Source of the DNA: Escherichia phage BAU.Micro_ELP-22
Reading direction: 5' to 3' (one strand)
Length of the DNA stretch: 64,000 nucleotides
Sequence record: OR699282.2
Both the position numbers and the translations under genes were made by a program. Shown here piece after piece: positions 3,545 to 58,041 of the stretch. Position 1 is the first letter of the stretch; each line of letters opens with the position of its first letter. Below the pieces are notes generated by a model. The model had not been told where the DNA came from. It did not search any database and saw only the letters and a program-made list of their open reading frames with translations.

Positions 3545-3554
3545 GGAAAGTACA

Positions 3555-6475: not shown

Positions 6476-6476
6476 A

Positions 6477-7384: not shown

Positions 7385-7386
7385 TA

Positions 7387-9492: not shown

Positions 9493-10025
9493 GAAAAATT
9501 AACATTAATGATTATGATGCATTACAAGATTTATCAAAAAAGATTCGCACTATCGTACCAGTACTGAAGAAATGCAGTACTGGTTTAATCGATCCTAGTA
9601 CTGTTGTTAATGAGAAGTACAATTTTCATTATGTATTACAGGGTACTGGGGCATTCCAGAAGTGTGAGGTGCGTGAGACACACGTAATTGATACATCATT
9701 GTTTTCTATTGGTGCACCTGTGTCGAATAATACTATTTTCCTAGACAACGCTGGAAATATTCAACAATTAACATTTAAGAAAAGGAAAAAGAACAATAAC
9801 ATTGGTGTGTATGCGATGAAGTGGGGTCAACCTGATTTGAAGCGTGAAATTCACATCCCTAAGTACAATTACAATGCATTTGACGAACAGTGTTTTCAAC
9901 TATCGTGTACTGACCCTGACTATGCTATTATTCAGTTCTATATGGAATTGCAGATAGCATTTAACAGTAATTTGTATATTAACTTATTGGCGATGAACAT
10001 CGATGAAGTATTCAAAAACATTTAA
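9489..10025 (+). CDS. hypothetical protein, degenerate FQ-motif
   Basis: 178-aa ORF; motif FDEQCFQLSCTDPDY. Confidence 0.55.
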   Translation: MRKININDYDALQDLSKKIRTIVPVLKKCSTGLIDPSTVVNEKYNFHYVLQGTGAFQKCEVRETHVIDTSLFSIGAPVSNNTIFLDNAGNIQQLTFKKRKKNNNIGVYAMKWGQPDLKREIHIPKYNYNAFDEQCFQLSCTDPDYAIIQFYMELQIAFNSNLYINLLAMNIDEVFKNI

Positions 10026-10221
10026 TCGAATTGAATACATGAGAACTGTGAGTGCAGTGTGGGACATATGGTTCACTACTAAACCAAAAATGGATTACCA
10101 TGACTTTAAGCTCTTGTTCTTCGTTGGCTCTAACAAACAGGATGTTGCAATGAAGGGTTATATTCAGCACTTACAGGAACTAATCCAGAAGAGAATATAT
10201 GAAAATAATAGACCAAAATGA
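10003..10221 (+). CDS. small hypothetical protein
   Basis: 72-aa ORF between larger genes. Confidence 0.35.
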   Translation: MKYSKTFNRIEYMRTVSAVWDIWFTTKPKMDYHDFKLLFFVGSNKQDVAMKGYIQHLQELIQKRIYENNRPK

Positions 10222-10390
10222 CATTGCTAAACTATTCAATATATATTCTACTAGAATGATGCAAACAGACTCATATAGTACTGAATTCAAAGAGTTGAAA
10301 GTCCTGATGTACTTGGGAACCCAATATCAGGAACAAGTTATTTTGGAATATATTAATTCGCTGAAGAAGGATATCCGTTATGTACGATGA
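10199..10390 (+). CDS. small hypothetical protein
   Basis: 63-aa ORF between larger genes. Confidence 0.35.
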   Translation: MKIIDQNDIAKLFNIYSTRMMQTDSYSTEFKELKVLMYLGTQYQEQVILEYINSLKKDIRYVR

Positions 10391-10940
10391 TTTAGATCTT
10401 GCGTTTGAACGTATGGTAATTTTAATGCAATGTGCAGAAATGCATGAAACAATCCGTCGCACCAAAGGGATTGAATATACAAGTAAACTATTCTCATACG
10501 AAAGTCGTCGAGGGATGGATCATTTTTACTGCACTGATTGTTCAAAGTTTTCAGTACTGAAATATTATCATCCTACTGTTTCCAATAATAGTTTAATATC
10601 CACATATGACGGTGATCTGTTTAGTGTAATGTATGACACATTACATCCATCAATTTCAATCTATAAAGATTGCGATAGTAGTTTATCGTATATAATTGAA
10701 GATTACTTATCTCCTAATACTGAAGAGAATATTTTTCAGAACAGTGTGTTGTATGATGAATTAAGTATAAAATGCATCTATATGTTCAATAAGTTAAAAG
10801 AGTACGCCGATAATAATTACTTAATTGATAAGTTAGCAGTATTGTCTGTTTCCGTTTTTAATACAAATGACATTGATATGAAATACTATAATGAGATTTG
10901 TAAAGTACATCATATGTATAAGGAACTATTATGTCAATAA
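10380..10940 (+). CDS. hypothetical protein, FQ-motif paralog family
   Basis: 186-aa ORF; motif TEENIFQNSVLYDELSIKCIYMF. Confidence 0.6.
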   Translation: MYDDLDLAFERMVILMQCAEMHETIRRTKGIEYTSKLFSYESRRGMDHFYCTDCSKFSVLKYYHPTVSNNSLISTYDGDLFSVMYDTLHPSISIYKDCDSSLSYIIEDYLSPNTEENIFQNSVLYDELSIKCIYMFNKLKEYADNNYLIDKLAVLSVSVFNTNDIDMKYYNEICKVHHMYKELLCQ

Positions 10941-11533
10941 ATGCAAATAAATGTTGTAGTGCAGATGTGCATTTGTTTTTTAAGAAATTAGCAAATGATA
11001 TTATATATATGCAGGAAATGATTTATCACAAACGAGCGGATTTAGAAAAAGCATTAGTACAGTTCTCATTTATGCTTGATGGTGATATATTTCTAGAGAG
11101 TGATGCATTGCGAATAGTATTAGACAAAAATGCTAAAAGATTTTTATTTCATATAGATAATAAATTATGTTCCTCCGTATGTCGTACTTTTTATAATCGT
11201 GATTCGGACTTATATCAATTCCTTTATTCTAAAGGTGCAGTAGAAGCATCATATGGTGATGGTTATGCCCTAGGAAAGAGTATTCCATTTATGAAATCAT
11301 TTAAAATAGAACACATCAGTACTGATGAAGATGTAATGTTCACAAATGATATAACTATGGGACGTGAAGATGCAATGCGATATATTACAAATTCTATGCA
11401 TACATTCTTTCAACGAACAGAATTTGATAATGTATATATATCAAATGTAAATATTTTCAATGACCTGTGTCAGTACTTGAAAAGTGTTTGTGATTTTGAT
11501 GAAAGCTATTGTAAGCTATACACTGAGGTATAA
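10931..11533 (+). CDS. hypothetical protein
   Basis: 200-aa ORF, no clear motif. Confidence 0.5.
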   Translation: MSINANKCCSADVHLFFKKLANDIIYMQEMIYHKRADLEKALVQFSFMLDGDIFLESDALRIVLDKNAKRFLFHIDNKLCSSVCRTFYNRDSDLYQFLYSKGAVEASYGDGYALGKSIPFMKSFKIEHISTDEDVMFTNDITMGREDAMRYITNSMHTFFQRTEFDNVYISNVNIFNDLCQYLKSVCDFDESYCKLYTEV

Positions 11534-11538
11534 AACCA

Positions 11539-11901
11539 ATGAACACATTAAGTATTACATACTATACAACTAAAAAATTAGTTACTTGTTTAATATCATT
11601 GAAGACAAATCATGATGATATGTTTGATATGGCGGCATATGAATTAGAATTATCAGAAGATGGCTTCAAGAGCTATGAAGTATATAGCTATGTTCGTGAA
11701 GATGTAATTGACACTACACTAATGCAAGAGGATGAGTTATTCCAAGAAAGTTTAGTATGGGATAATAAGTACGATTGTAACTTTGATTTCTTATGTTTAA
11801 TCCAGAAAGAAATGAAAAGAATCTTTGATAATTATCCAGTGAAGAGATTGAGTACTGGACCGGAGCAGTACAGGAGAATTTTATTCCGTTATGAAGACTG
11901 A
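11539..11901 (+). CDS. hypothetical protein, FQ-motif family (LFQESLVWD subgroup)
   Basis: 120-aa ORF; motif QEDELFQESLVWDNKYDCNFDFLCLIQKEMK. Confidence 0.7.
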   Translation: MNTLSITYYTTKKLVTCLISLKTNHDDMFDMAAYELELSEDGFKSYEVYSYVREDVIDTTLMQEDELFQESLVWDNKYDCNFDFLCLIQKEMKRIFDNYPVKRLSTGPEQYRRILFRYED

Positions 11902-12226
11902 ATTAGTGAAAGTAATGTACGCTACTCATATTAAACTACTACTTGTGAAATTTGATTATAATAAAAAACATAATGATTTCTATACTTTAATTCGTGATGA
12001 AAATACATTCTCCTTGCGATGCAACAATATACCGTTGAAGATAAATGATTTTACTTCACTTGACGAGGGTGAATTATTTCAAGAATCATTAGTTTTTAAT
12101 AGTAATATAAAAATTGATATAGAAGTTATTAAAAAATACCAGATTTTATTGAACAAAATTATGAATTGTTATCCATGTGAAATAGGTGGTCATATGCAGT
12201 TCAAATCAAAAATGTATGAATTATGA
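11891..12226 (+). CDS. hypothetical protein, FQ-motif family
   Basis: 111-aa ORF; motif DEGELFQESLVFNSN. Confidence 0.65.
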   Translation: MKTELVKVMYATHIKLLLVKFDYNKKHNDFYTLIRDENTFSLRCNNIPLKINDFTSLDEGELFQESLVFNSNIKIDIEVIKKYQILLNKIMNCYPCEIGGHMQFKSKMYEL

Positions 12227-12233
12227 GGTTTAT

Positions 12234-12770
12234 ATGTTAGATGAAAAAATGAACAATGGAACACAATATAATCATCTTAAGTTAGATACATTCGAATCAG
12301 CTATCAGTACTGCACAAGATATAATTGATATTATCAAGTTCATTAAAGAAAATAAGTTCAAATGTTTGAAAATACTAAATCGTTCAATGTACCGTGATAA
12401 CAATATTCATGTATCAGTACGTAGACCGAAAGATAAAGAAAGTGGGAGAGATTTCTATAACAACAGTGAGCAGTTCGAATGTGAATATGATCCAGAATTC
12501 AGAGGCGGTTTCATGTGTTACAGTATAAAGGATACCTCACACATTGAGATACGTTCATCGAAAGGTGGCATACGTACATTAGAGTTCATTGATATAGTTT
12601 TAAATCAGGAATACTACTTTCAACTATCATTATTGTTTCCTGCATACGATTTAGGAGTTCTATTCATGTATAAGTACTTTTATGAGCACTGGAATGAAGA
12701 CTTCTATCTGGACTTAGAAGATTACCAATTAGTTTGGAAAGAAATGGTAGAACTTCGCAATCCCTCTTGA
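12234..12770 (+). CDS. hypothetical protein, FQ-motif paralog family
   Basis: In-frame ATG 12234 with GAGG 8 nt upstream preferred over track start 12186; motif NQEYYFQLSLLFPAYD. Confidence 0.6.
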   Translation: MLDEKMNNGTQYNHLKLDTFESAISTAQDIIDIIKFIKENKFKCLKILNRSMYRDNNIHVSVRRPKDKESGRDFYNNSEQFECEYDPEFRGGFMCYSIKDTSHIEIRSSKGGIRTLEFIDIVLNQEYYFQLSLLFPAYDLGVLFMYKYFYEHWNEDFYLDLEDYQLVWKEMVELRNPS

Positions 12771-12796
12771 CACCCACCGATTCTTTGTGATATAAT
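12767..12796 (+). promoter_or_regulatory. sigma70-like promoter with extended -10
   Basis: TTGACA (12767-12772), 18-nt spacer, TGaTATAAT (-10 hexamer 12791-12796); followed by inverted repeat CCCTTTA/TAAAGGG (12796-12818) in the leader. Confidence 0.6.
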
Positions 12797-12829
12797 CCCT
12801 TTATATTAATTGTAAAGGGTTATAACACA

Positions 12830-13306
12830 ATGTCCAAAGACCTATCATTTAGCAATGCACAAAAAATAGCAAAAGACATTATCAGGGTTTATAAATTCCT
12901 TGCGAATGTTACTGAAGATTTTTCCGTGGGGGAACATAAAGTTATTAAACGAAATGGATACCTTTCATTTATGGATGGGTTACTCTATAGTTCAGATGAA
13001 TCAACTTGTAGCATTAGAGTACTTGATGAAGTACCAAGTGGTGATTTTATTTCATACCATTTTCCAAGTTCAGATAATTTCAAATACTACAATCATCTTC
13101 TTATAAATGAAGCATTTAATACGATTGTAATTAACACTGAAGAAGAGTTCTTCCAGTACAGTACTGTGTATCCAGAGAGGATTGTTTTCAGTTCAGTGAT
13201 TTTAACAGCCCTTAAAAATGAACTAAATTCCGATAGTGATCATTTCTACTTGGACCTGAACAATGTCGATTGTATTATTGAGTACCTGGAGAAAAATGGT
13301 TTATGA
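12830..13306 (+). CDS. hypothetical protein, FQ-motif paralog family
   Basis: 158-aa ORF; motif TEEEFFQYSTVYPERIVF. Confidence 0.65.
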   Translation: MSKDLSFSNAQKIAKDIIRVYKFLANVTEDFSVGEHKVIKRNGYLSFMDGLLYSSDESTCSIRVLDEVPSGDFISYHFPSSDNFKYYNHLLINEAFNTIVINTEEEFFQYSTVYPERIVFSSVILTALKNELNSDSDHFYLDLNNVDCIIEYLEKNGL

Positions 13307-14140: not shown

Positions 14141-14537
14141 AATTATGCAACGATGTATTGTAGACCAACACGGGATATATGGATATAGTTTAAGTGCTCC
14201 TATTGACAAAAATAAAACAACCTATGTAAGCTATAATGCTGTACAAGGATTTGATATATTCATTGATGCCAACAATAAAATCAAACAAGCTAAGGATGTG
14301 TCTATAATGACCCCTGACGAGCTATTTCAGTACAGCTTAGTTCTGCCTACCTGTATTGATTTACAACGTCTAGGAGCTATACAGAAGGTTTTACGCGAAC
14401 ATAAAGTACAACCCAATAAAGTCACACACATTCCAGAAACAATCTTCAAAACCATAGAAGTAGAAACTCCTGATTATATGTTAAGTGATGATGAGTACTA
14501 CGAGAAACACTTCCCTGGTAAAGTTTGGAGAGACTAA
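14124..14537 (+). CDS. hypothetical protein, FQ-motif paralog family
   Basis: 137-aa ORF; motif TPDELFQYSLVLPTCIDL. Confidence 0.6.
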   Translation: MFEMIKIMQRCIVDQHGIYGYSLSAPIDKNKTTYVSYNAVQGFDIFIDANNKIKQAKDVSIMTPDELFQYSLVLPTCIDLQRLGAIQKVLREHKVQPNKVTHIPETIFKTIEVETPDYMLSDDEYYEKHFPGKVWRD

Positions 14538-15019
14538 TGAACCGAAAGTACAGAGAAACTATGAAGTTCGCTAAGGAGTGTTTAGAGACAGTTGATTTCA
14601 TTTTCGATAACAAAGACTCACTGGGTCATCACTTCGTAATTACAAAGAAAGAAGATAAGAGATACAAGTGTGAAAGATTAGGATACAGTATTGAGTTCTC
14701 CTTAATGATTGATGGAATGATAAACTCCTTATATGAATGTGGTAAGACTGATTACCTTTCATTTAGATCATGGAGTGAAGGTATCATGTTCTTGAGAACA
14801 AATGGAGTTTTATATCCGTTTCTTGATGATTTATCAGAAGAAAGTTACTTTCAAAATAGTTTAATTTACACAGAAAAAGAACTCAAGATGCTATTCATTA
14901 TGTCGTACTTTAAAAAGTACTGCAATTTTAAATCATTATCTTTTGAGATCTCTGCAATGAAAGTATTCATTAAAAATGTAAAAGAATTAAAGAGGATTTA
15001 CGATGTACATAGAAAATGA
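14525..15019 (+). CDS. hypothetical protein, FQ-motif paralog family
   Basis: 164-aa ORF; motif SEESYFQNSLIYTEKELKMLFIMSYFK. Confidence 0.65.
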   Translation: MERLMNRKYRETMKFAKECLETVDFIFDNKDSLGHHFVITKKEDKRYKCERLGYSIEFSLMIDGMINSLYECGKTDYLSFRSWSEGIMFLRTNGVLYPFLDDLSEESYFQNSLIYTEKELKMLFIMSYFKKYCNFKSLSFEISAMKVFIKNVKELKRIYDVHRK

Positions 15020-31889: not shown

Positions 31890-32201
31890 ATGTTATTAAA
31901 TGATATACAATTCACATACAAATTTTTGTATATCCAATACGCTACGGTTGATGCTGGAGAATATCTCTACAGTGAAATCTATCGTTCGGTATGGATAAAG
32001 TTTTTGGATGAATTACATGATTATTACCATGATTTGTGTATAGTTCGTGATAATAAAATATACAAATTCCGCGATATTGTTAGTCATAGCGGTAAGCTAC
32101 GATTGGAATTAAGTACTGATAGTGATGTTGATTGGATTGGTGTAAATTTACTGGAATTGAAGAATGAAAAACAACTTAAAGGAAATACAAGTATTTTATA
32201 A
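31890..32201 (+). CDS. hypothetical protein, small paralog family 2
   Basis: 103-aa ORF; IQFTYKFLY N-term. Confidence 0.6.
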   Translation: MLLNDIQFTYKFLYIQYATVDAGEYLYSEIYRSVWIKFLDELHDYYHDLCIVRDNKIYKFRDIVSHSGKLRLELSTDSDVDWIGVNLLELKNEKQLKGNTSIL

Positions 32202-32448
32202 ATTCTTATACTTATCATATGTAAAAGATGAGTACTATGAAAGTGTGTATTATTTTTTATGGCAACATTACCGTACTATAGTAAGAGATTTATATATAGG
32301 AAAATCTATCATATCCAATGGTGAAAAATGTATCTGTACGGATGTAGTTAGTTTTAATGGTTCTTTAACATTGTGTTTCAGATGCGATAATAATAGTGGA
32401 TCATTTTCATTAAACGTATATCAGTTAGAAGGAATAAATTTTGAATAA
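32164..32448 (+). CDS. hypothetical protein, small paralog family 2
   Basis: 94-aa ORF; IQVFYKFLYL N-term. Confidence 0.55.
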   Translation: MKNNLKEIQVFYKFLYLSYVKDEYYESVYYFLWQHYRTIVRDLYIGKSIISNGEKCICTDVVSFNGSLTLCFRCDNNSGSFSLNVYQLEGINFE

Positions 32449-47217: not shown

Positions 47218-48009
47218 ATGAAATTTGTTGTAACGTCTGACGTACACGGTGGTACTGATTACCTCCATAGTGGTGATTACAGTGATACAGTACTGATTAT
47301 TGCTGGGGATTTTGATGAAGTTAAACGTAGTCGTTATCGTACTGGCATTGAATCCCTGTGTAAACAGTTTAAGAATGTAGTACTGGTTCCTGGCAATCAT
47401 GAATATTATGGTTCCAATATCCACAAAACGCATAAAGTACTGTCCGATATGCAAGATGAGATTCCAAATTTCATCTTTTTGCAAAACAAATTTGTATGGC
47501 TGGATGGAGTACTGCTTGTTGGTAGTACTCTGTGGACAGACTTCGATAAAGGTAATTCTTTGACGAAGTTTGATGCTTGTCAGAAGATGAACGATTACAA
47601 ACATATCCGTCATGGAACAACATCAGAGCCTTGGCGTAAGAAACTGACACCAGATGATACTGAGTTTATGCATCACAAAGATAAACAATTTATCAAAAAT
47701 TCTATTGACACAGTTCGCTTTATGCATGATAATGATTTCAAGGTCATCGTGGTTACCCATCACGCACCAAGTTATCAAAGTGTTTCACCAAAATATAAAA
47801 ATGATTCACTGAATGGTTGTTACTGTTCCGATATGGATCAGTACATTGAAGATTTGGGTGCTGATGTTTGGATTCATGGTCATGTTCATAGTAGCTTTGA
47901 CTACCACATTGGTAAGACACGTATCATTTGTAATCCACGAGGCTATGAATCATACAGTGGAGCTTGTGAGAATTTTGATTACAATCCTAAATTTGTATTT
48001 GAAATTTAA
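47218..48009 (+). CDS. calcineurin-like metallophosphoesterase
   Basis: Motifs VVTSDVHGG, IIAGDFDE, VPGNHEYYG, VVTHHAP, WIHGHVHSS. Confidence 0.75.
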   Translation: MKFVVTSDVHGGTDYLHSGDYSDTVLIIAGDFDEVKRSRYRTGIESLCKQFKNVVLVPGNHEYYGSNIHKTHKVLSDMQDEIPNFIFLQNKFVWLDGVLLVGSTLWTDFDKGNSLTKFDACQKMNDYKHIRHGTTSEPWRKKLTPDDTEFMHHKDKQFIKNSIDTVRFMHDNDFKVIVVTHHAPSYQSVSPKYKNDSLNGCYCSDMDQYIEDLGADVWIHGHVHSSFDYHIGKTRIICNPRGYESYSGACENFDYNPKFVFEI

Positions 48010-48021
48010 TGAGAGGATATT

Positions 48022-48405
48022 GTGTCATTAATTTATTTTGAACTACCAGAATATACCAATTATCCAAGCCGAGTTATTTGCTCAGTTTATAGTAATGCAT
48101 ATCATCACTTGTTAGTGAATAGTAATAAAGCTGTGCATTATTATCGAAATAAAGAACCACGTACATTAAAGAATCGTTATGGGTTTGACCCAACTAACAC
48201 TGAAGTTGAACTCTGTGATCTGTTCGGGGAAGTAATGGTGGTGTTGAAACGAGATATTCATCTTTTCCATACATACAAACTTAATCAGTACTTTATGGAA
48301 ACACTGTCTATACGTTCCCATGCTCCGATGATTAAAGTTGATTTGAATTATGTTGATGATAAATTGAAATATGATTTCATTAATTCACTTGTTTATTTGG
48401 AGTAA
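48022..48405 (+). CDS. hypothetical protein
   Basis: GTG start with GAGAGGA RBS; 127 aa. Confidence 0.45.
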   Translation: MSLIYFELPEYTNYPSRVICSVYSNAYHHLLVNSNKAVHYYRNKEPRTLKNRYGFDPTNTEVELCDLFGEVMVVLKRDIHLFHTYKLNQYFMETLSIRSHAPMIKVDLNYVDDKLKYDFINSLVYLE

Positions 48406-48406
48406 T

Positions 48407-48811
48407 ATGAATATACGTTCAGTACGAATATTTTCATTTGTTGATATGAATAAAAAACACTCTTATGTGTTTGAAAATGTCAATAAGTTAAATCCTCATA
48501 CGGCAAAAATGATTGAAACCATGAAGAACTTGAGTTTACATATAGAAGTTTACTATCTTCATGACGATTCTGTTTATGTATATGATGATGGATGGTATGA
48601 CGGTGTGTTTTATGATGACATTAGCACTACTGCTGATTACTACTTTCTAGTGAGTAATCCACTATTCAGTACTAAAACTTTGTTTGACATTACCGATACA
48701 AGCGTGTATGATACAAGTCATGTTGAGTTACTTAAGTTTGATCCAGTATTATTCAACAAAGAGACGGCGTATTGGATGACTGATTTCTTTTCAAATATTC
48801 CAGTAAAATAG
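48407..48811 (+). CDS. hypothetical protein
   Basis: ATG 48407 with GGAG RBS preferred over track start 48371. Confidence 0.5.
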   Translation: MNIRSVRIFSFVDMNKKHSYVFENVNKLNPHTAKMIETMKNLSLHIEVYYLHDDSVYVYDDGWYDGVFYDDISTTADYYFLVSNPLFSTKTLFDITDTSVYDTSHVELLKFDPVLFNKETAYWMTDFFSNIPVK

Positions 48812-48812
48812 T

Positions 48813-48841
48813 TTGGACATTTTAAATCTTAGTGATATAAT
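48813..48841 (+). promoter_or_regulatory. sigma70-like promoter with extended -10
   Basis: TTGGAC (48813-48818), 17-nt spacer, TGaTATAAT (-10 hexamer 48836-48841); upstream of clpP. Confidence 0.6.
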
Positions 48842-48875
48842 ACTCACAACAACGAAATAATAGAGGAAATTAATA

Positions 48876-49571
48876 ATGGTTGAACAATTCATGTTTGGTG
48901 GTTATGCTAATGGCGAAGTACGTAACATTTCTATTCCTTACGTAGTTGAGAAAGTTAATGGTTCAGAACGTACATATGATCTAGCATCTCGTATGATGCA
49001 AGACCGTATCATTTTCCTTGATACTGATTTCAATGATCAAATGGCACATATCATCAAACAACAATTGGTATGGTTAGACTCACAAGGTGATTCCCCTATT
49101 ACATTCTACATTAGTTCACCGGGTGGTTCAGTACACGCAGGTTTGGGTATTGCAGATGTTGCTAAGTCTTGTATTTCTCCAATTCGCACTGTAGTAATGG
49201 GCTATGCAGCATCAATGGGTTGCTATACACAATCTGTAATTGGCACTAAAGGTTTCCGTTTAGGTGGTAAGCGTTCTTATTTCATGTGTCACCAAGTAAG
49301 TTCTGGTACACAAGGTCTAATTACTGACCAGAAGATTTCACTTAAACATTCTGATGCCCTAAACACTCTATTGACTAAAGAAATTGCAGAAGCAGTTGGT
49401 GTAACACACGAACAACTACTTAAAGATGCAGACCGTGATTTGTGGTTAAATGCAGAAGAAGCTCTTGAATATGGTGAACATGGTTTCATCGATGGTATTA
49501 TTCTTGGGCCACGCAATGAAGAAGGTAAGTACTTAGTTAAGCGTCGCGGTGGCGTGGAAGAGTGGGTGTAA
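48876..49571 (+). CDS. clpP: ATP-dependent Clp protease proteolytic subunit (ClpP homolog)
   Basis: RIIFLDTDFNDQMAHIIKQQLVWLD, ISSPGGSVHAGLGIAD, catalytic Ser context GYAASMGC, His context MCHQVSSGTQG and Asp in DADRDLWL all align with bacterial ClpP. Confidence 0.85.
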   Translation: MVEQFMFGGYANGEVRNISIPYVVEKVNGSERTYDLASRMMQDRIIFLDTDFNDQMAHIIKQQLVWLDSQGDSPITFYISSPGGSVHAGLGIADVAKSCISPIRTVVMGYAASMGCYTQSVIGTKGFRLGGKRSYFMCHQVSSGTQGLITDQKISLKHSDALNTLLTKEIAEAVGVTHEQLLKDADRDLWLNAEEALEYGEHGFIDGIILGPRNEEGKYLVKRRGGVEEWV

Positions 49572-49619
49572 GATAGATTTTGATGCCTCAATATGGGGCA
49601 TCATCTTTGTGGAGATTAT

Positions 49620-49910
49620 ATGAAAGTACTAGTACGTAATAATACGGAAGTAGCAAATGTATTAGAAGATTCCGATTTTATTAATGTTGCGTTCGATCAA
49701 ATTAGTGCAGTAGCACTTGAATTAAAAAATGTAGATGAATCTGAGCGTGTGCTGAATGGTTTTGCAATTGTACTTGAATTAATGAAAGAAGTACTAATTA
49801 AAAAGAACATTAATCCAGTTGATGCGGTTCAACATGCAGAAGCTGTGCGTAAAGAACACGGTACATTCTCTGACAAAAAATACATTCAAACTGATGAGGT
49901 AAAAGAATAA
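49620..49910 (+). CDS. hypothetical protein
   Basis: ATG 49620 with GGAG RBS; 96 aa. Confidence 0.5.
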   Translation: MKVLVRNNTEVANVLEDSDFINVAFDQISAVALELKNVDESERVLNGFAIVLELMKEVLIKKNINPVDAVQHAEAVRKEHGTFSDKKYIQTDEVKE

Positions 49911-49911
49911 T

Positions 49912-50358
49912 ATGTCCAATGCACAATATAAAGATGGTTATGACGCATACAAAGCAAAAGTAGTTCTAAGTGCTGAACAGCTAAAAATGCAGCATCCATT
50001 ATATCGTCAGGGCTATCGTGCAGCACAAGCAGAAGCAATGAAGAAAAATAATGTAACTTTTCCTACTACACTATATGATATTCCAAAACGTCCACACATT
50101 TTTAAAGCTGAATGGACTGATATTATGGCAGCGACAAAGCGTCCACGCTTTGCTAAATTACACACCGATGAAGGTCGCTGGTTGCTAATGGGGATTATGA
50201 AAGCAGTTGAGAATCAATCTCATAAGATTGTTCGTTATAAAGATGTTGTTGCTATGGTTGATAAAGCATTTGACCTTGTACTTCAATATGGTTATGATGA
50301 AGGTGTTCTAACTGTCGCTGATTGTGAAAAATATCAGTACACCCCATATCAAAAATAA
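49912..50358 (+). CDS. hypothetical protein
   Basis: 148-aa ORF. Confidence 0.55.
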   Translation: MSNAQYKDGYDAYKAKVVLSAEQLKMQHPLYRQGYRAAQAEAMKKNNVTFPTTLYDIPKRPHIFKAEWTDIMAATKRPRFAKLHTDEGRWLLMGIMKAVENQSHKIVRYKDVVAMVDKAFDLVLQYGYDEGVLTVADCEKYQYTPYQK

Positions 50359-50368
50359 TATTGTGAAA

Positions 50369-50397
50369 AGGAATCCTATCATGGGATTCCTATTTTT
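50369..50397 (+). terminator. rho-independent terminator
   Basis: AGGAATCC-tatcatg-GGATTCCT hairpin followed by ATTTTT. Confidence 0.75.
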
Positions 50398-50484
50398 ATT
50401 GCTGTATATCAATTTTCCATTGATCATATTTTGATCTATATGAGCTAAATACCCAAGGAATCATTGTTACTAGGGTAGGTGAAT

Positions 50485-51033
50485 ATGCAGCAATATAATT
50501 TAACTGAAGAACAAAGTGATATTTTTTACCATCATATGTTTTTAATTGATGAATTTGCTTTAAAAATTAATTCTGAAGCAATTGATATATTGAAGAAATG
50601 GTATAGTTGTTATAATAAAAACAAAAAGTGGTATTGGTTTAATAGAAATATAAAATCATTTCTAAAAACAATCACACACACTGATAGTATTGAGTTAATA
50701 CATAGTTCTATTGGATATAGTTACTTAACTAAACACAACAGTACTATGATGTTATCAGGGTTTAAAGTTGAAAGAATTTCCAAGTTAACAGGTTTATCAT
50801 TAGAAACAATTCTATATGATATTGAGAAAATTTGGAAAACTATAGAATTAATGCATAAAAATATGTCATTCATATATAGAAATTATGATATATTCACTGA
50901 TGTAAGACAATATCATAATAAACCGTATGTATTGGATGAAAAGTACTATAATCATATGGAAGTTTGTTCTAAACTCGTTGATGATTGGAATCTAGAGGGA
51001 CATAATGAAATACACACACCTAAGTATAGATGA
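50485..51033 (+). CDS. hypothetical protein
   Basis: ATG 50485 (track used GTG 50479); 182 aa. Confidence 0.55.
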   Translation: MQQYNLTEEQSDIFYHHMFLIDEFALKINSEAIDILKKWYSCYNKNKKWYWFNRNIKSFLKTITHTDSIELIHSSIGYSYLTKHNSTMMLSGFKVERISKLTGLSLETILYDIEKIWKTIELMHKNMSFIYRNYDIFTDVRQYHNKPYVLDEKYYNHMEVCSKLVDDWNLEGHNEIHTPKYR

Positions 51034-51529
51034 TACTAATATCTGGTTAGATAACATAATCAAGACATTAGAATTAATTAAACTTACATTACAAAAAACT
51101 ACTGATATTGAAATTAAAATTAAACAAGAAATATTAAACTATTATCATAGAAACAAATATAGCACGTTTATCTCTAAATTAATTTATGGATTATATGATA
51201 TTGAAGATATTTGCATCGGTTACAGTACTGGTATTTGCTTCACAGTTAATGGTTTAAAAAATGATTTAAATTTCAGACTTTCCGATGAAGAGCAAGATTT
51301 TCGTAGATTTTGTGATAATATTATGGATACAGATAAAATTACATTTGTTATTGAATTAAATCAAACGTGGTCTACATATGCAGATAAACCATTTGAAATT
51401 AATGAAACAGATGTGTTAAACTATATTCGAGTTATGAAAATTCATGATTTGTGTAAAAACGCATTGTTAAGTATTGGAGCTTATAATGAAACATACGACT
51501 TGGTTGAAGATAGCAGAAGTAGTTGCTGA
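51005..51529 (+). CDS. hypothetical protein
   Basis: 174-aa ORF. Confidence 0.5.
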   Translation: MKYTHLSIDDTNIWLDNIIKTLELIKLTLQKTTDIEIKIKQEILNYYHRNKYSTFISKLIYGLYDIEDICIGYSTGICFTVNGLKNDLNFRLSDEEQDFRRFCDNIMDTDKITFVIELNQTWSTYADKPFEINETDVLNYIRVMKIHDLCKNALLSIGAYNETYDLVEDSRSSC

Positions 51530-51965
51530 GGAAAGTAAATGTATTTCACAAAAAGTTGGTTGTGTTATTGTTAAAAATAACCGAGTATTGAGTACTGGAT
51601 ACAATGGTACTCCATCAAAACAACCAAATTGTTGTGATGTGAATCAACACTTAGTCAATGATGGACGTTTTCAAGACTGGGTTAGTGATGAAGCAAAGCA
51701 TGAACATCATGAGTGGAGTAATATTCATGAAATCCATGCTGAAATGAACGCTTTACTCTATAGTTCTCCTGCTGAACGTCAAGGTGCTACTCTTTACACA
51801 ACACTACAACCATGTTATACTTGTTCTAAGTTGATCGCAGGTAGTGGGATTTCACGTGTAATTTATCTCAAAAATTATCCTCGTACACCACCAGAAGCTA
51901 TTAAAGTACTGGAAGATGCTGGAATTATTGTTAATTGCATTTATGATAAGGGTCTTGATAAATGA
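51486..51965 (+). CDS. cd: deoxycytidylate (dCMP) deaminase
   Basis: ESKCISQKVGCVIVKNNRVLSTGYNGTP, zinc ligand motifs HAEMNAL and PCYTCSKLI; closely parallels T4 Cd; ATG 51486 with GGAG RBS. Confidence 0.85.
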   Translation: MKHTTWLKIAEVVAEESKCISQKVGCVIVKNNRVLSTGYNGTPSKQPNCCDVNQHLVNDGRFQDWVSDEAKHEHHEWSNIHEIHAEMNALLYSSPAERQGATLYTTLQPCYTCSKLIAGSGISRVIYLKNYPRTPPEAIKVLEDAGIIVNCIYDKGLDK

Positions 51966-52219
51966 CAGTAATAATTATTATTGCTTTTCTAATAACAGTG
52001 TTTTTTATTTTTATGTTATATATAGTTGCTATGGATGAACCTAATACTTCTTTTCGAAATTATGAAGTTCGTTTTTCTGCACAAAATAATAAGTACTATA
52101 TTGTAAACTGTATACAGCGTAGTGAGAAAAGGGTAACAAGTAGATTTGGATTTACCATTTATTATAAAGACCGAGTAGAAGCTGATATGATTTGTCAGAA
52201 GCTTAATACTGTAGAATAA
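51962..52219 (+). CDS. small membrane protein
   Basis: 85 aa, N-terminal TM helix (IIIIAFLITVFFIFMLYIVAM). Confidence 0.5.
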   Translation: MTVIIIIAFLITVFFIFMLYIVAMDEPNTSFRNYEVRFSAQNNKYYIVNCIQRSEKRVTSRFGFTIYYKDRVEADMICQKLNTVE

Positions 52220-52246
52220 AAAAAGGAGCCGTATGGCTCCTTTTTT
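52217..52246. terminator. bidirectional rho-independent terminator
   Basis: A-run, GGAGCC-gtat-GGCTCC hairpin, T-run; sits between convergent + and - strand genes. Confidence 0.75.
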
Positions 52247-52247
52247 G

Positions 52248-52625
52248 TTAACCAGGGAGGTTACAATAATACAAATCCCAAGGGTGATATTTCATCGCAC
52301 CAGTACTCAATTTAATTTTATGAAACTGGAATGATTCGGCAAATGCACTATCGTCAATCTTAATACAAAAAGTGTTTTTGGCTAGAGTTGGTGCAATTTC
52401 CAATGCTGTTTTAGATGCATCTAATCTAATTTTATCTTTATCATAACTAGTGATAGTTACAAAACGATAAACATTAAAATCAGTATCAATGAGATCGTAA
52501 ACACAACTAGAACGTTGATTAAAGATGTTCAAGTTATATTTCAATTCACCGTTTATATTAGCTGCGGTTACACAAAACCCGCCGATATTGAATGGTAGTT
52601 TACCTTGTGCTGCGATAGCTTTCAT
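52248..52625 (-). CDS. hypothetical protein (only minus-strand gene in window)
   Basis: 125-aa ORF on - strand bounded by the bidirectional terminator. Confidence 0.5.
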   Translation of the reverse strand: MKAIAAQGKLPFNIGGFCVTAANINGELKYNLNIFNQRSSCVYDLIDTDFNVYRFVTITSYDKDKIRLDASKTALEIAPTLAKNTFCIKIDDSAFAESFQFHKIKLSTGAMKYHPWDLYYCNLPG

Positions 52626-52695
52626 ATTTTATTTCCTTTTTTAAATATAAGTATGAAATATATTTGTTTTTTACATCAGATGCACCATGAACTAG

Positions 52696-52724
52696 TTGAC
52701 AAAACATCAGTGGTATGATATGAT
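52696..52724 (+). promoter_or_regulatory. sigma70-like promoter
   Basis: TTGACA (52696-52701), 17-nt spacer, TGaTATGAT (52719-52724); TTAAGT(A/G) triple repeat follows at about 52770-52810. Confidence 0.5.
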
Positions 52725-52850
52725 CTGTTATAAACTGTACACCTTAAGTTTTATTTTTAAAAATTTGAGTTAAGTACAGAAAAAGTTTGACTTAAGTGTT
52801 TAAGTACTATATTATTTATATCTTCCTAAACAAAATTGAGGACTTGTTAT

Positions 52851-53459
52851 ATGAAAAGACTATGGCTTGAAGTGATACAAGCAGCGATGTTTCTATTGTT
52901 AATAAATTTTCCAGCCAGTGCTGGTATTGAAAGTAAAAATGTGATAAAGTATAATCCTGAAACCCGAAATGTATATTTCATATCAGATATTACAGATGGG
53001 TCGCTCAAGAGAATGATAGAGTTGTATGATAAAGAACACTATGATACCATCACAATTACATCTCCTGGTGGTGATTTTGATGCAGGTATTCGAATGGCAA
53101 ACTTTGTTAGAGACAATGGGATAAATTTAATTGTTTCTAGGTATTGCAATTCAGCATGTACTGTGGTATTCTTTAGTGTATCTCCCGAAAAGCGATATAT
53201 GACAAATCGCTCAGTACTGGGTCTTCATAACATTTCGATTAAAAGTAATGTTACTGATGGTGATAATTCATTTGTGTCTGTAAGACAGTTATCAACTTTT
53301 ACCGAAGAAATGGCAACAAAGGTAGGTTTCCTTTTTTCACTATATGCAGCAAATGGAATCCCACCAGAAGTACTATTTAGAGTTAGTCGTTCTCGTGGTG
53401 AAGATGTTGTAATATTAACAAAACCAGAACTGGTTTTTTACGGTTCAGTCAAACAATAA
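52851..53459 (+). CDS. secreted ClpP/S49-fold serine peptidase-like protein
   Basis: Signal peptide MKRLWLEVIQAAMFLLLINFPASAG; ITSPGGDFDAGIRMANFV and CNSACTVVFF resemble the ClpP SPGG and active-site Ser segments. Confidence 0.5.
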   Translation: MKRLWLEVIQAAMFLLLINFPASAGIESKNVIKYNPETRNVYFISDITDGSLKRMIELYDKEHYDTITITSPGGDFDAGIRMANFVRDNGINLIVSRYCNSACTVVFFSVSPEKRYMTNRSVLGLHNISIKSNVTDGDNSFVSVRQLSTFTEEMATKVGFLFSLYAANGIPPEVLFRVSRSRGEDVVILTKPELVFYGSVKQ

Positions 53460-53529
53460 AAATAATTAAAATAACAGGATGATTATGATGTACTTCCTTT
53501 GTTATTAATTATATTGAGATTATATAACT

Positions 53530-53790
53530 ATGACAAACATCCAAAACTTGACATCTATTATTTTTTATGCTACTGTAGTAATGTATGCTACAGTTATTTT
53601 TCTAACAGTTTTCATTTACAAAGATTATCGTAATGGCTTTATTGATCCAACTACAATGAAGTTCAATTCAAAATTCGAAGCAATAATTTATTATGTACTA
53701 TCAACTTCATACTTGGTGTGCCTAATGTTGTTAGGAGCACTAATTTATATCTTATACACAACATTATTTGCAATTGGAGCTATTTTATGA
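53530..53790 (+). CDS. small membrane protein
   Basis: 86 aa, two to three hydrophobic segments. Confidence 0.5.
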   Translation: MTNIQNLTSIIFYATVVMYATVIFLTVFIYKDYRNGFIDPTTMKFNSKFEAIIYYVLSTSYLVCLMLLGALIYILYTTLFAIGAIL

Positions 53791-54380
53791 CCTGTATTAT
53801 TGCACACACTGACGGAGTAAGTTCTTTTATTGCTGGGGATAAGTTAGGAAGCAATGGATTTACAAAAACTGTTCAAACTGAGCCAAAGGTATTCGAGAAA
53901 GAATTTATCAAGTTACATGATGATGGACTAACTAGAACTAAAGAAGTAATGGCATTGGGTTATACTACATCATTTCGTATGGGTCAGTTGTTAAATTATA
54001 ACCTTAATTTACCTGAACAAGATGCTAGTCAAACATTTTCACAATATTTGGTTCTTAAAGTTATTCCAATTATTCGTCAAATGTTTAAAGAAGAATGGGG
54101 TGCACGAGATGCATCACAAGATGTAGGTGGTGGACAATTTATCATTCTCCACAATCATACAATCTATGAAGTTCAAGAAGACTTTTCAGTACTACAACCT
54201 AAAACAAGAATTACCGCAGTAGGTAGTGGGACATATCATGCAATTGCAGCAATGCAAGCATATATTGAAGTTGAGAACGAATCTAAAAAACCACTACACG
54301 AACGTATCAAATCAATTTTTAAAATTGTTAGTGATAATGTAACAAGCGTAAGCGAAGAGTTTGATGTTTTAAAATATTAA
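53787..54380 (+). CDS. HslV/proteasome beta-like Ntn hydrolase
   Basis: ATG 53787 (ATGA overlap) gives M-TCIIAHTDGVSSFIAGDKLG resembling the HslV N-terminus TTIVSVRRNGHVVIAGDGQ with Thr nucleophile; ITAVGSGTYHAIAAM matches LIAIGSGGPYAQAAA. Confidence 0.6.
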   Translation: MTCIIAHTDGVSSFIAGDKLGSNGFTKTVQTEPKVFEKEFIKLHDDGLTRTKEVMALGYTTSFRMGQLLNYNLNLPEQDASQTFSQYLVLKVIPIIRQMFKEEWGARDASQDVGGGQFIILHNHTIYEVQEDFSVLQPKTRITAVGSGTYHAIAAMQAYIEVENESKKPLHERIKSIFKIVSDNVTSVSEEFDVLKY

Positions 54381-54407
54381 AAGTACTAATATTATAAGAG
54401 AGAATAG

Positions 54408-54602
54408 ATGATGGCATACACAATTTATGAATGGGTTTTGAGTTTTTTTATAGTTTTTTCTATTGTTGTAATTTATAACAATGCTAAATGCTTATATAGG
54501 GACTTGAAATCCAATGGTTATCACAAAGATAATAATTTTATGTATGCCTATCATATTGGAATCATTCTGTTATTATCAATATATTTAATTGTTTTTTTAT
54601 AA
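54408..54602 (+). CDS. small membrane protein
   Basis: 64 aa, two hydrophobic segments. Confidence 0.45.
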   Translation: MMAYTIYEWVLSFFIVFSIVVIYNNAKCLYRDLKSNGYHKDNNFMYAYHIGIILLLSIYLIVFL

Positions 54603-54611
54603 GGATTGAAT

Positions 54612-55364
54612 ATGATATCAGAAAAATTTATAAGCAATGAAGGTAAAAAGCGATTACTGATTATATCAGGTGCAGGACTTTCTGTTGAAAGTGGTATGGA
54701 ACCTTTTCGATTTGATGATGGTTTGTGGGATACATTTAAAATTAATGATGTATGTAACATTGCTAGTTTAACTACAAAATATCATGTTGTTCATTCTTTC
54801 TATAATACATTACGTGTAAAATTGGGACAATGCGAACCCAATGCAATGCATTATTTTATAAAATCGTTAGAAGATCAATATGGTGATTGCTTCCTTCATA
54901 TGACTTCTAACATGGATGATCTTTATACTCGTATCGGTGGTCATGAGCTTAAACTTCATGGAAACTTGTGCGAAGTTATTGAAAATTATAGTATCAATTC
55001 TGATGATTATAATGTTATTAACTGCGGATACGAACCATACATACCAAAACATGATGTTTTTGCTAAACCAAATGTAGTAATGATTGGAGAATATCATCGT
55101 TATGTTGATGGTATTCGCTTACCAATTTACGAAGAACGAAATAATGTGTTGAAATCTCTTAATGAAAATGATACAGTTATTGTAATTGGTAGTAGCGATA
55201 CAGTACTGGTGTGGTCGAGATTAGCAGCAGCATTGCCATGTTATAGTGTTAATGTTAACATTCGTAAAAATGATAATGATTTTTTGTTTAATGAAAAAGT
55301 TATCAAGCCAGCAACCAAAGCAATACCTCAACTAGAGACTATAATTAAGGAACGTATGAAATGA
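54612..55364 (+). CDS. Sir2-family NAD-dependent deacylase/ADP-ribosyltransferase-like protein
   Basis: LLIISGAGLSVESGMEPFRFDDGLW (NAD-binding GAGxSxxSGIxxFR), catalytic-His context ELKLHGN, VIVIGSSDTV; ATG 54612 with AAGGA RBS. Confidence 0.65.
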   Translation: MISEKFISNEGKKRLLIISGAGLSVESGMEPFRFDDGLWDTFKINDVCNIASLTTKYHVVHSFYNTLRVKLGQCEPNAMHYFIKSLEDQYGDCFLHMTSNMDDLYTRIGGHELKLHGNLCEVIENYSINSDDYNVINCGYEPYIPKHDVFAKPNVVMIGEYHRYVDGIRLPIYEERNNVLKSLNENDTVIVIGSSDTVLVWSRLAAALPCYSVNVNIRKNDNDFLFNEKVIKPATKAIPQLETIIKERMK

Positions 55365-55912
55365 GTGTTAAAGAAGTTCCCTTTGGTGAATATGGCACAC
55401 GTGCAAATTTTGTATTTTGCTATTTCTTTGCAAGAAAATGCAACCCTTACGAAAACTATGAGTTAAATGATATACCAGAAGTAAATCTGGTATTACTACA
55501 ATTACGATGGGATGGTCTTCTTGGTGGATGTGGTGGAACCGTAGAAAGTACTGATATCTCACTAGAAGATGCGTTGCGTCGTGAAGTTCAAGAAGAAATG
55601 GATTACAATATTTTTGTTTCCCATCTTCGACCACTCAAAACTTTTGAAATTTACCCAGGTGCAAACAGTCATAGTTTTAGCTATGAAGTGAGCTATGACG
55701 AGTTGAAACACATTAGAGATGGATACACTAATGCTAAACATGCAAGTGCAGAAGTGGCTGGTGTAAATTTATGTCATATTTCTCGTTATTCTAAGGGACA
55801 AAATCGAGAAGCGGGATATAATAATCTTATGACACAGAACTTCATCGGTACAGCAAAACAAGAATTGGAGTATCTGGTTCAAAAAGAAAACTTACTAATT
55901 AGTTATCTATAG
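55361..55912 (+). CDS. putative Nudix hydrolase (divergent Nudix box)
   Basis: GGCGGTVESTDISLEDALRREVQEEMDY resembles Gx5Ex7REUxEExGU but with a longer E-to-RE spacer. Confidence 0.45.
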   Translation: MSVKEVPFGEYGTRANFVFCYFFARKCNPYENYELNDIPEVNLVLLQLRWDGLLGGCGGTVESTDISLEDALRREVQEEMDYNIFVSHLRPLKTFEIYPGANSHSFSYEVSYDELKHIRDGYTNAKHASAEVAGVNLCHISRYSKGQNREAGYNNLMTQNFIGTAKQELEYLVQKENLLISYL

Positions 55913-56601: not shown

Positions 56602-58041
56602 ATGAAAAAATATACAATTGACACAAACGTACTACTATCTGACCCTAATGCATCTATTGCTTTTGATGGTGCTGCAATCATTCTACCATTTACAGTACTG
56701 GAAGAATTGGATTCAATTAAGAGTCGTAATGTAGATGTTTCACGCGATGCTCGTGTTGCTATTCGTAACATTGAAGCAATTATTGCAGATGCATCACATG
56801 ATGAGATTAGTAGTACTGGTGTTAATATTGCTGATGTTCATACCAATATGAATCCTGATAGCAAATTGTTTGTTATTACAAACGAAGAAGCTGAAGCACT
56901 AATTCGTACTAAAGGTTCAGAAGAGAAAGTTCAAACCCTTCTCAAAAGCACAGTACCTGATGATAAAATCATTCTGGTAGCTTTAGCAACAGAATCAGTA
57001 CTGGTAACTCGTGATATCAACATGCGTATCAAAGCACTAAGTTATGGTGTCGAGGTACAAGATTATCGCCATGATATTGTTATTGGTGATAGTGATTTGA
57101 TTCACATTGGTCAACACCATTTGGAAATTAATTTTTGGGAAGTATATAGCAACTTAACCAATACTAATATTCAATCCGAACAAGTTGGTCGTCGTTTGTA
57201 TCATTACATTTCTAAAAGCTTGATTGAACATTTGCTTCCACAAAATCTATGCATCGGTGATTATCTATATGATGATGCAGACGTATTATTTGTGTACGAA
57301 GGTCAATCAGCAATTGAGGAAGATGATGGAACACTAACACCAGAAGATATTTTGGTATTCCAAGATATTGGACAATCAGTAGCTTTACGTGCTAAAGTAT
57401 GGGATATTAAAGCAAAGAATATCCAACAAGCACTCGCCATCAACAGTATTCTCGATCCTGATGTACATCTAACAGTACTGCTAGGTTCTGCTGGTACTGG
57501 TAAAACACTAATTACGATTGCTACTGCATTAGAATTAGTACTGGAAAAACGTAAATACGACCGAATCATCTTCTCTAAAACTCAAGACTCACAGTTTGAA
57601 GATATTGGTTTCTTGCCAGGTTCAGAAGCAGAAAAAGTGATTCCATTCTGTGGAGCCGCAATTGACGCGTTAGAGTTTCTTCATAAAGATGATGCTAACC
57701 CACAAGGTAGTATTGAAGAGATTATGAAACGTAATGTTATTCAATTTAAAGCACTAAACTTTGTACGTGGACGTTCATTCACCAACACTATTCTAGTAGT
57801 TGATGAATTCCAAAACATTACACCTGCACAAGCCAAAACAATCTTGACACGAGCAGGATTAAACTGTAAAGTAGTAATTATGGGTAACTTGAGTCAGATT
57901 GACAGTAAGTTTATTAGTCCTGTTAACAGTGGTTTGACATATGTAACTGAGAAGTTTAAAGATTGGGCAGGTTGTCGTGTCATCGAACTAGAAGGTGTTG
58001 TTCGTTCACCACTTGCAGAATTTGCTGAAGAAAATATGTAA
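56602..58041 (+). CDS. phoH: PIN-domain / PhoH-like ATPase fusion protein
   Basis: N-terminal PIN-like YTIDTNVLLSDP...LEELD; C-terminal Walker A LLGSAGTGKTLITIA and Walker B-like ILVVDEFQN. Confidence 0.75.
   Translation: MKKYTIDTNVLLSDPNASIAFDGAAIILPFTVLEELDSIKSRNVDVSRDARVAIRNIEAIIADASHDEISSTGVNIADVHTNMNPDSKLFVITNEEAEALIRTKGSEEKVQTLLKSTVPDDKIILVALATESVLVTRDINMRIKALSYGVEVQDYRHDIVIGDSDLIHIGQHHLEINFWEVYSNLTNTNIQSEQVGRRLYHYISKSLIEHLLPQNLCIGDYLYDDADVLFVYEGQSAIEEDDGTLTPEDILVFQDIGQSVALRAKVWDIKAKNIQQALAINSILDPDVHLTVLLGSAGTGKTLITIATALELVLEKRKYDRIIFSKTQDSQFEDIGFLPGSEAEKVIPFCGAAIDALEFLHKDDANPQGSIEEIMKRNVIQFKALNFVRGRSFTNTILVVDEFQNITPAQAKTILTRAGLNCKVVIMGNLSQIDSKFISPVNSGLTYVTEKFKDWAGCRVIELEGVVRSPLAEFAEENM

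Follow-up and report, generated by a model that had tools for sequence, protein, structure and literature searches.

Three peptidase genes of a jumbo coliphage and the candidate ClpA and ClpS partners of its ClpP

Three genes resembling those of self-compartmentalising proteases lie close together (positions 48876–54380) in a stretch of 64,000 nucleotides from Escherichia phage BAU.Micro_ELP-22 (sequence record OR699282.2; we refer to this whole stretch as the window), and they raise the question of what the phage does with them and which ATPase, if any, serves them. An initial annotation made from the sequence alone had described a ClpP, a ClpP/S49-like protein with a signal peptide and an HslV-type hydrolase, all without an ATPase partner and perhaps hijacking the unfoldases of the host. 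The three open reading frames (ORFs) are found where that annotation had placed them and their catalytic residues are intact. We think it likely that they provide three separate activities, with ClpP belonging to a phage ClpA–ClpP–ClpS machine, the second protein being a Sec-exported ClpP-fold peptidase, and the third a proteasome-like peptidase with an N-terminal threonine (Thr1) and no phage ATPase.

Nucleotide identity places the source phage amongst the Asteriusvirus (Rak2-like) jumbo coliphages. Across window positions 48000–55500, phAPEC6 (vB_EcoM_phAPEC6) is 99.3% identical over 7.5 kb, and PBECO4, UB, G17, SP27 and other Asteriusvirus jumbo coliphages (~350 kb) are 98.9–99.2% identical, while PBECO4 is 97.2% identical to the whole window and collinear with it over 63,502 of the 64,000 bases. 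The ClpA and ClpS-like genes described below were read in complete relatives which are 97–99% identical, mainly PBECO4, where they lie beyond the 64 kb of the window. We scanned the PBECO4 genome by phmmer using the Escherichia coli ClpP, ClpX, ClpA, ClpS, HslU and HslV proteins against all 1885 stop-to-stop ORFs, and the distribution counts for ClpP, ClpA and the ClpS-like protein come from tblastn searches over 50,697 phage records.

A cellular-type ClpP and its candidate partners

The clpP gene (48876–49571, + strand) encodes a serine peptidase of the cellular type with 231 amino acids (gp353c in phAPEC6 and gp105 in PBECO4), as judged by Pfam and NCBIfam models, matches to structures in the PDB and alignment with the E. 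coli protein. It matches the Pfam CLP_protease family PF00574 with an E-value of 3.8e-41 (141.4 bits against a cut-off of 20.2) over profile positions 2–179 of 182, the solved structures closest to it are cellular ClpPs (4.6e-36), and it shares 35% identity with E. coli ClpP in a pairwise alignment. In this alignment, Ser113 (in GYAASMG), His139 (MCHQ) and Asp188 (DRDLW) fall on the E. coli catalytic residues Ser97, His122 and Asp171, and the earlier description of a full ClpP homologue with an intact Ser/His/Asp triad is therefore upheld. A 19-residue leader precedes the conserved IPYVVE start, and the N-terminal region is conserved with respect to E. coli ClpP. The NCBIfam models for cellular ClpP give scores of 151–155 bits, and because these do not reach the equivalog cut-offs (249–309) we classify the protein from its sequence as a divergent member of the ClpP (S14) family. 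The pocket that receives the IGF/IGL loop of the unfoldase was read by hand from the alignment: Y62 and M92 are retained, the replacements I90V and F112L are conservative, and Y60T, F82S and L114G are changes. The neighbouring genes encode a ligase, a phosphoesterase (phosphatase) and a deaminase.

We found no homologues of Clp/Hsp100, ClpX or HslU in the part of PBECO4 equivalent to the window, and to this extent the annotation of the locus as having no ATPase partner was correct. However, the complete PBECO4 annotation contains two 'ATP-dependent protease' genes beyond this region, and the phmmer scan identified genes for ClpP, a ClpA-type unfoldase (gp539) and a ClpS-domain protein (gp457) as the only ones of their kind. 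No homologue of ClpX or HslU was found among the 1885 ORFs, with E. coli HslU matching only the ClpA-like ORF, and this weakly (1.2e-05).

The unfoldase gp539 (762 amino acids; PBECO4 330788–333076, outside the window) was assigned using NCBIfam, Pfam and alignment. The NCBIfam ClpA model TIGR02639 covers the whole of it in a single stretch (9.5e-227), with a score of 754.7 that is under the equivalog cut-off of 993, whereas the match to ClpB models is split into two stretches, from which it follows that gp539 lacks the ClpB middle domain. Pfam recognises AAA, AAA_lid_9, AAA_2 and ClpB_D2-small in this protein, which is 43% identical to E. coli ClpA and retains both the Walker A and B motifs as well as the pore loops. 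Like ClpA it combines an N-domain with two AAA+ modules and a docking loop of the IG[LF] type and lacks the middle domain of ClpB; the IGL loop by which ClpA docks on ClpP reads IGM in PBECO4, IGV in RaK2, and IGF in PA5oct and Atu_ph07.

The second candidate partner, gp457 (181 amino acids, also outside the window in PBECO4), matches the ClpS domain PF02617 with 24.7 bits (cut-off 23) over residues 74–144. It is 29% identical to E. coli ClpS and has an N-terminal extension of ~60 residues. The residues of E. coli ClpS which bind N-degrons are N34, D35, T38, M40 and H66; reading the alignment of this pocket by hand, we find that D35 and T38 are kept in gp457 and that N34D, D36P, M40A and H66N are changed.

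Homologues of ClpP were identified in 155 phage records (33 of them from Escherichia phages), of ClpA in 179 (32 Escherichia) and of the ClpS-like protein in 71 (33 Escherichia). All three genes occur in Klebsiella RaK2-like phages, Cronobacter GAP32, Serratia BF, Yersinia fHe-Yen9 and in Erwinia and Salmonella phages; Pectobacterium CBB is amongst those with a ClpS-like gene, and PA5oct-like phages, Atu_ph07 and SCTP-2 are amongst those with ClpP and ClpA. The names clpA and protease adaptor / ClpS are already in use for these genes in many records. Attai 2018 listed the Clp genes and noted that most Rak2-like phages have a conserved ClpA (PMC6102473), and Iyer et al. 2021 mentioned jumbo-phage ClpP and ClpS as probable host-directed peptidase systems (PMC7824862). 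In the literature we searched there was no experimental work on the phage ClpP, ClpA or ClpS-like proteins, and the PA5oct and Sharanji papers mention neither the Clp genes nor the timing of their expression.

Because a ClpA with a docking loop and a ClpS-like protein co-occur with ClpP across the Rak2-like clade, we propose that the phage ClpP would be the proteolytic core of a phage ClpA–ClpP machine with a ClpS-like adaptor, and the suggestion that these are orphan proteases hijacking host unfoldases is not supported. We infer from homology, the docking loop and co-occurrence that a ClpA hexamer would dock on a ClpP tetradecamer (ClpA6–ClpP14) via the IGM loops; substrates, picked by ClpA itself or delivered by the ClpS-like adaptor, would be unfolded there and passed into the chamber. 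Such a machine would probably serve to reshape or remove proteins of the host or the phage in the course of infection, with the clpP unit appearing to be expressed early and apart from head assembly.

Other PBECO4 proteins were considered as unfoldases and rejected. The 'ATPase' gp010 has a marginal AAA match, is set amongst tail genes and is likely to be a virion component, gp484 is instead a DnaB-type helicase, and gp528 has by eye the look of a Rad50/SbcC-type protein. We note that gp010 (441 amino acids; 10012–11337, − strand) matches PF00004 with 21.3 bits and is of a size that fits the 49.5-kDa 'ATPase' of the phAPEC6 virion; it would be an ATPase packaged in the particle if this match holds. 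An apparent local 'ATPase' partner in phage CRJP21 (vB_EcoM_CRJP21, OQ708376.1) proved to be an artefact, as the product names of this record are out of register with its genes: 'ATPase' is attached to Sir2, 'nudix hydrolase' to the exported peptidase and 'putative virion protein and lysozyme murein' to ClpA, making the record a trap for annotation transfer.

A probably exported peptidase and a proteasome-like peptidase

The second gene (52851–53459, + strand) encodes a ClpP-fold Ser/His peptidase of 202 amino acids (gp346c in phAPEC6), an assignment which draws on the family alignment, the fold match and a predicted signal peptide. At the N-terminus a single hydrophobic helix leads into a conserved FPASA, after which cleavage is predicted (signal peptide residues 1–24, 52851–52922), and distant relatives of the protein have signal-peptide-like or lipobox-like starts; from these features it is very probably exported. 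Its match to Pfam CLP_protease (0.0043) is under the cut-off, it is a member of PHROG 26024 'protease', and the family profile collects 1889 distant relatives. Seven residues are invariant in the 28 aligned members (S71, G73, G74, C99, S101, C103 and H126), with S71-x-G73-G74 forming the oxyanion loop and C99-x-S101-x-C103 holding the nucleophile; the third residue of the triad is not conserved in the family alignment. The closest folds are ClpP1/ClpP2-type subunits, and a long helix (144–167) stands in place of the ClpP handle helix. Neither a Ser-Lys dyad nor SppA as the closest structure was found, so of the earlier ClpP/S49-like description the ClpP fold and the predicted signal peptide stand and the S49 reading does not. 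The gene was found in 49 phage records, nearly all from jumbo phages of ~350 kb, and we propose that the peptidase would work in the periplasm or at the membrane and need no ATP. As a separate observation, the CxSxC motif present in 28 of 28 members could form a disulfide across the active-site turn of an exported protein, which would allow redox control.

The third gene (53787–54380, + strand) encodes a Proteasome-beta/HslV/BPH-like N-terminal nucleophile hydrolase of 197 amino acids (gp345c in phAPEC6), as supported by a PHROG match, invariant residues and the predicted structure. The product starts Met-Thr-Cys (Thr codon 53790–53792), and removal of the initiator Met would expose an N-terminal Thr. 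In 36 homologues, down to 27% identity, no change is seen at M1, T2, C3, D18, K34 or the two glycines of the G-S-G motif (G146 and G148), and with Thr numbered as residue 1 these positions give the Thr1/Asp17/Lys33/GSG set of the proteasome. The protein matches PHROG 1040 'peptidase HslV family' at 4e-24, and an AlphaFold model with a predicted local distance difference test (pLDDT) score of 92.3 finds HslV in Foldseek at 4e-10 (template modelling, TM, score 0.6–0.7) and BPH with a TM of up to 0.73. The initial identification of an HslV-type hydrolase with an N-terminal Thr is thus confirmed, with the proviso that the equivalog models NF003964 (19.9 bits, cut-off 137) and TIGR03692 (18.9, cut-off 157.75) are not reached. 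We propose that it may need no ATPase from the phage and act on its own, the mode presumed for BPH and Anbu, or else with the HslU of the host, and since no HslU is encoded it is the only one of the three for which the absence of a phage ATPase partner still holds.

Searches with the second and third proteins were less informative by other means: single-sequence searches of solved structures returned chance matches only, no Pfam family was above threshold in either protein or in 10 distant relatives of the second, and the cluster names of these 10 relatives were all 'hypothetical protein'.

Homologues of the HslV-like protein were identified in 197 phage records, mostly from unrelated smaller phages, including T5-like Epseptimavirus (~110 kb), Aeromonas and Vibrio phages, XacN1, SCTP-2 and Geobacillus E3. 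The EPS7 copy lies amid nucleotide-metabolism genes with no ATPase nearby, and no HslU was found beside the homologues in EPS7 or Aeromonas phage 4L372D. The latter has two adjacent 'peptidase HslV family' genes (183 and 294 amino acids; stretch 3501–4954), a hint that a proteasome-like set of two subunits exists in some phages. The phage-borne proteasome homologues PPH, AAH and CPH have been described by Fuchs et al. 2021 (PMC8665760), and we considered whether the HslV-like protein is a PPH (~140 amino acids, without helix H2; PMC8665760); this was ruled out by its length of 197 amino acids and the presence in the model of both helices of the first pair (H63–72 and H84–104).

As the initial annotation had noted, small membrane proteins flank the HslV-like gene, and each has two strongly hydrophobic segments. 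The upstream gene (53530–53790, + strand; 86 amino acids, recognised by hydropathy, with no Pfam or PHROG match) has a stop codon that overlaps the HslV-like start (ATGA), which suggests from the sequence that the two are translationally coupled. It shows no similarity to the upstream membrane protein of EPS7, and we dropped the idea that it is a conserved partner of the HslV-like protein. The downstream gene (54408–54602, + strand; 64 amino acids) is directly 3' of the HslV-like gene and has a weak match (0.0029) to PHROG 18969 'membrane protein'.

Alternative readings of the three peptidases

Several records label the phage ClpP 'head maturation protease', which implies that it is a morphogenetic (prohead or virion-processing) enzyme, and phrog_94 of this name is indeed its top PHROG (3.6e-44). 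However, PBECO4 has a dedicated protease, gp520, which matches Peptidase_S77 (T4 gp21 type) at 9.9e-21 and is encoded at ~297–301 kb, between gp518 (major head protein) and gp523 (portal), answering the earlier suggestion that a separate prohead protease be looked for elsewhere in the genome. ClpP, in contrast, is encoded at 72 kb, ~225 kb from this head module, with the ligase, phosphatase and deaminase genes for neighbours and no scaffold domain fused to it, and its placement outside the structural module was therefore rightly seen. None of the three peptidases is amongst the 62 proteins of the phAPEC6 virion proteome, although a single ClpP peptide was recorded in that of CBB (PMC5259590). 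ClpP scores 51 bits with the NCBIfam head-maturation ClpP-related model NF045542 and does not reach its cut-off of 120; because the cellular ClpP models score 151–155 bits, the 'head maturation protease' label is an artefact of PHROG transfer. ClpP is not the prohead protease, and we regard any morphogenetic role for it as highly improbable. The second protein might likewise be taken for part of a ring, as a cytosolic ClpP2- or ClpR-like subunit mixed with the phage ClpP, and some records name it 'ClpP subunit 2'. Its closest folds, the helix at the site of the handle helix, and a position ~4 kb downstream of ClpP that is kept in RaK2 and XaC1 would suit such a subunit, but these genomes are broadly collinear and synteny is weak evidence. 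The hydrophobic N-terminal helix and the conserved FPASA after it have the typical form of a Sec signal peptide, the starts of the distant relatives point the same way, the two invariant Cys beside the nucleophile suit an oxidising compartment, and the third triad residue is not conserved; because of the signal peptide a cytosolic unfoldase is unlikely to reach this protein, and we find a mixed ring improbable.

A role for host unfoldases is the alternative closest to the initial annotation: orphan phage peptidases would dock on ClpX or ClpA (for ClpP) and on HslU (for the HslV-like protein) and so redirect host proteolysis. The window contains no AAA+ unfoldase, and as PBECO4 has no HslU or ClpX homologue, host HslU is the sole possible AAA+ partner of the HslV-like protein. 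Cross-docking of ClpP with host ClpX or ClpA is also conceivable given the conserved N-terminal region and parts of the pocket (Y62, M92 and I90V). Yet several other pocket residues have diverged from E. coli, and a cognate ClpA with a docking loop and a ClpS-like adaptor are found in the same genomes and accompany ClpP throughout the clade. Identity between the HslV-like protein and HslVs is no more than 15–20%, the protein scores 19.9 bits where the HslV model requires 137, and its structurally closest relative, BPH, is not known to use HslU (PMC5777263). We therefore consider it unlikely that host unfoldases drive these peptidases, and prefer the three separate activities with a phage ClpA serving ClpP.

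Several points weigh against the interpretation we prefer. The ClpA and ClpS genes were read in close relatives and are not in the 64-kb window, the three Clp genes are scattered and do not form an operon, and ClpP, ClpA and the HslV-like protein are all divergent, being under the NCBIfam equivalog cut-offs. Because several docking-pocket residues of ClpP differ from those of E. coli (Y60T, F82S and L114G, read by hand), docking of ClpA on ClpP is put forward here conditionally, and most positions of the ClpS N-degron pocket also differ (N34D, D36P, M40A and H66N). The signal peptide of the second protein was judged by eye and hydropathy only, and the ClpP peptide in the CBB virion should also be counted here. 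The divergence of the pockets could reflect a co-adapted, phage-specific pair. In a more far-reaching and decidedly tentative proposal, the Rak2-like phages might have a complete degradation system of their own, free of the host Clp network (the IGM/IGV ClpA, the diverged ClpP pocket and the ClpS-like protein with its altered pocket), plus two ATP-independent peptidases, one exported and possibly redox-gated by CxSxC, and the other a stand-alone Thr type coupled to small membrane proteins.

Genomic setting and comparison with known systems

The initial annotation treated the three peptidase genes as a cluster; they are real and adjacent, but they do not form one system. The order in RaK2 is ligase, ClpP, dCMP deaminase, a minus-strand structural gene and the exported peptidase, followed by Sir2-Nudix-PhoH, and between the exported peptidase and Sir2 there are genes for a cytidyltransferase, an HNH endonuclease and a nicotinamide phosphoribosyltransferase. 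The trio of membrane protein, HslV-like protein and membrane protein is missing at this syntenic locus. Because RaK2 keeps ClpP and the exported peptidase and has other genes in the place of the HslV-like gene, the three peptidase genes are not one conserved module, and the HslV-like gene is a lineage-specific insertion flanked by the two small membrane proteins.

Candidate expression signals were identified around two of the genes. A sigma-70-like promoter (48814–48841, + strand; TGGACA, 16-nucleotide spacer, TATAAT and an extended -10 TG; 11 of 12 matches) is located in the 64-bp gap before clpP, and a hairpin resembling an intrinsic terminator (49581–49603, + strand; 10-bp stem and T-rich tail) follows 10 nucleotides past the clpP stop codon. 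A second sigma-70-like candidate (52696–52724, + strand; TTGACA, 17-nucleotide spacer, TATGAT and TG) is located in the 225-bp gap before the exported peptidase, from which gene through to the Nudix gene the intergenic gaps are −4 to 70 nucleotides. The G17 record annotates terminators in this stretch. These signals are suggestive of early transcription by the host RNA polymerase, in which clpP would be monocistronic and the genes from the exported peptidase to Nudix would make up a second operon; the reading is only suggestive because promoter-like sites are no more frequent in the region than in shuffled sequence (58 observed against 54.6).

Other features of the window are noted here. It has a G+C content of ~32%, 106 of the 110 ORFs of at least 90 amino acids are on the + strand, no tRNA genes were found in it, and none of seven local proteins matched the PADLOC defence-system models. 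The sole sizeable minus-strand gene near the peptidases (52248–52625) corresponds to phAPEC6 gp347, a 14-kDa virion protein detected with 75% peptide coverage, and belongs to PHROG 33171 'virion structural protein'; it is a structural gene amid enzyme genes, and RaK2 has a minus-strand structural gene at the equivalent spot. Directly 3' of the HslV-like cassette there is a Sir2-family gene that overlaps a Nudt16-like Nudix gene by 4 nucleotides (54612–55912), and in RaK2 (stretch 7571–13107) the Sir2-Nudix pair is preceded by the cytidyltransferase and nicotinamide phosphoribosyltransferase genes. Judging by these gene contents, the stretch looks like a nicotinamide adenine dinucleotide (NAD) metabolism island in which the HslV-like trio takes the place of NAD-salvage genes. 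Further on, a PhoH-like protein of 479 amino acids (56602–58041) corresponds to phAPEC6 gp341c, which was detected in the virion with 31% coverage, and its N-terminus is by eye like a PIN-type nuclease. Tandem arrays of small paralogous genes, all hypothetical proteins in the PBECO4 annotation, include a six-member family (5984–8296 plus 14537–15019), a four-member family (4885–5974 plus 11539–11901) and two pairs (8607–9492 and 31890–32448).

Public records already carry annotations for the peptidase genes and comparative papers mention them, and the genes do not represent a new kind of element. The main value of our analysis is in correcting the view that there is no ATPase partner and the misleading 'head maturation protease' label. 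If an independent ClpA–ClpS–ClpP machine does exist, it would mean a virus with its own regulated proteolysis system, and would give a handle on the host or defence proteins that are removed during the long infection by jumbo phages. The exported ClpP-fold and proteasome-like peptidases are conserved families.

The HslV-like protein shares with HslV, BPH, PPH, AAH and CPH the proteasome-beta fold, the Thr1/Asp17/Lys33/GSG residues, a compact subunit with no propeptide beyond the initiator Met, and a distribution amongst phages; it differs from HslV and BPH in being only 15–20% identical and in that the phage does not encode HslU, and it has an insertion of ~20 residues (about 37–57) that is missing in shorter relatives. 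The second protein can be compared to SppA (S49) and NfeD, which are also ClpP/crotonase-fold serine peptidases acting outside the cytosol and free of ATP. With the ClpP-type prohead proteases (NCBIfam Clp_rel_HeadMat and related PHROGs) the phage ClpP has in common the ClpP fold and a distant sequence match, but unlike them its gene is not beside portal, scaffold or capsid genes, the head-maturation model scores far below the cellular models, and a separate S77 enzyme is present.

The closest comparison is with the bacterial ClpAP/ClpS system of E. coli (ClpP being MEROPS S14), in which ClpP has the same fold and Ser/His/Asp triad, ClpA has the same architecture (an N-domain and a pair of AAA+ modules, with an IG[LMVF] loop but without the ClpB middle domain), and a ClpS-domain protein likewise occurs. 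The bacterial genes are found in clpS-clpA and clpP-clpX operons, whereas those of the phage are dispersed, and the phage proteins share 35% (ClpP), 43% (ClpA) and 29% (ClpS) identity with those of E. coli and are all under the NCBIfam equivalog cut-offs; the phage ClpS-like protein also differs in its N-terminal extension and altered N-degron pocket, and ClpP in several docking-pocket residues. Atu_ph07, RaK2, GAP32, CBB and PA5oct have orthologous ClpP, ClpA and ClpS sets, of which the window holds the Asteriusvirus copy with nothing essential different.

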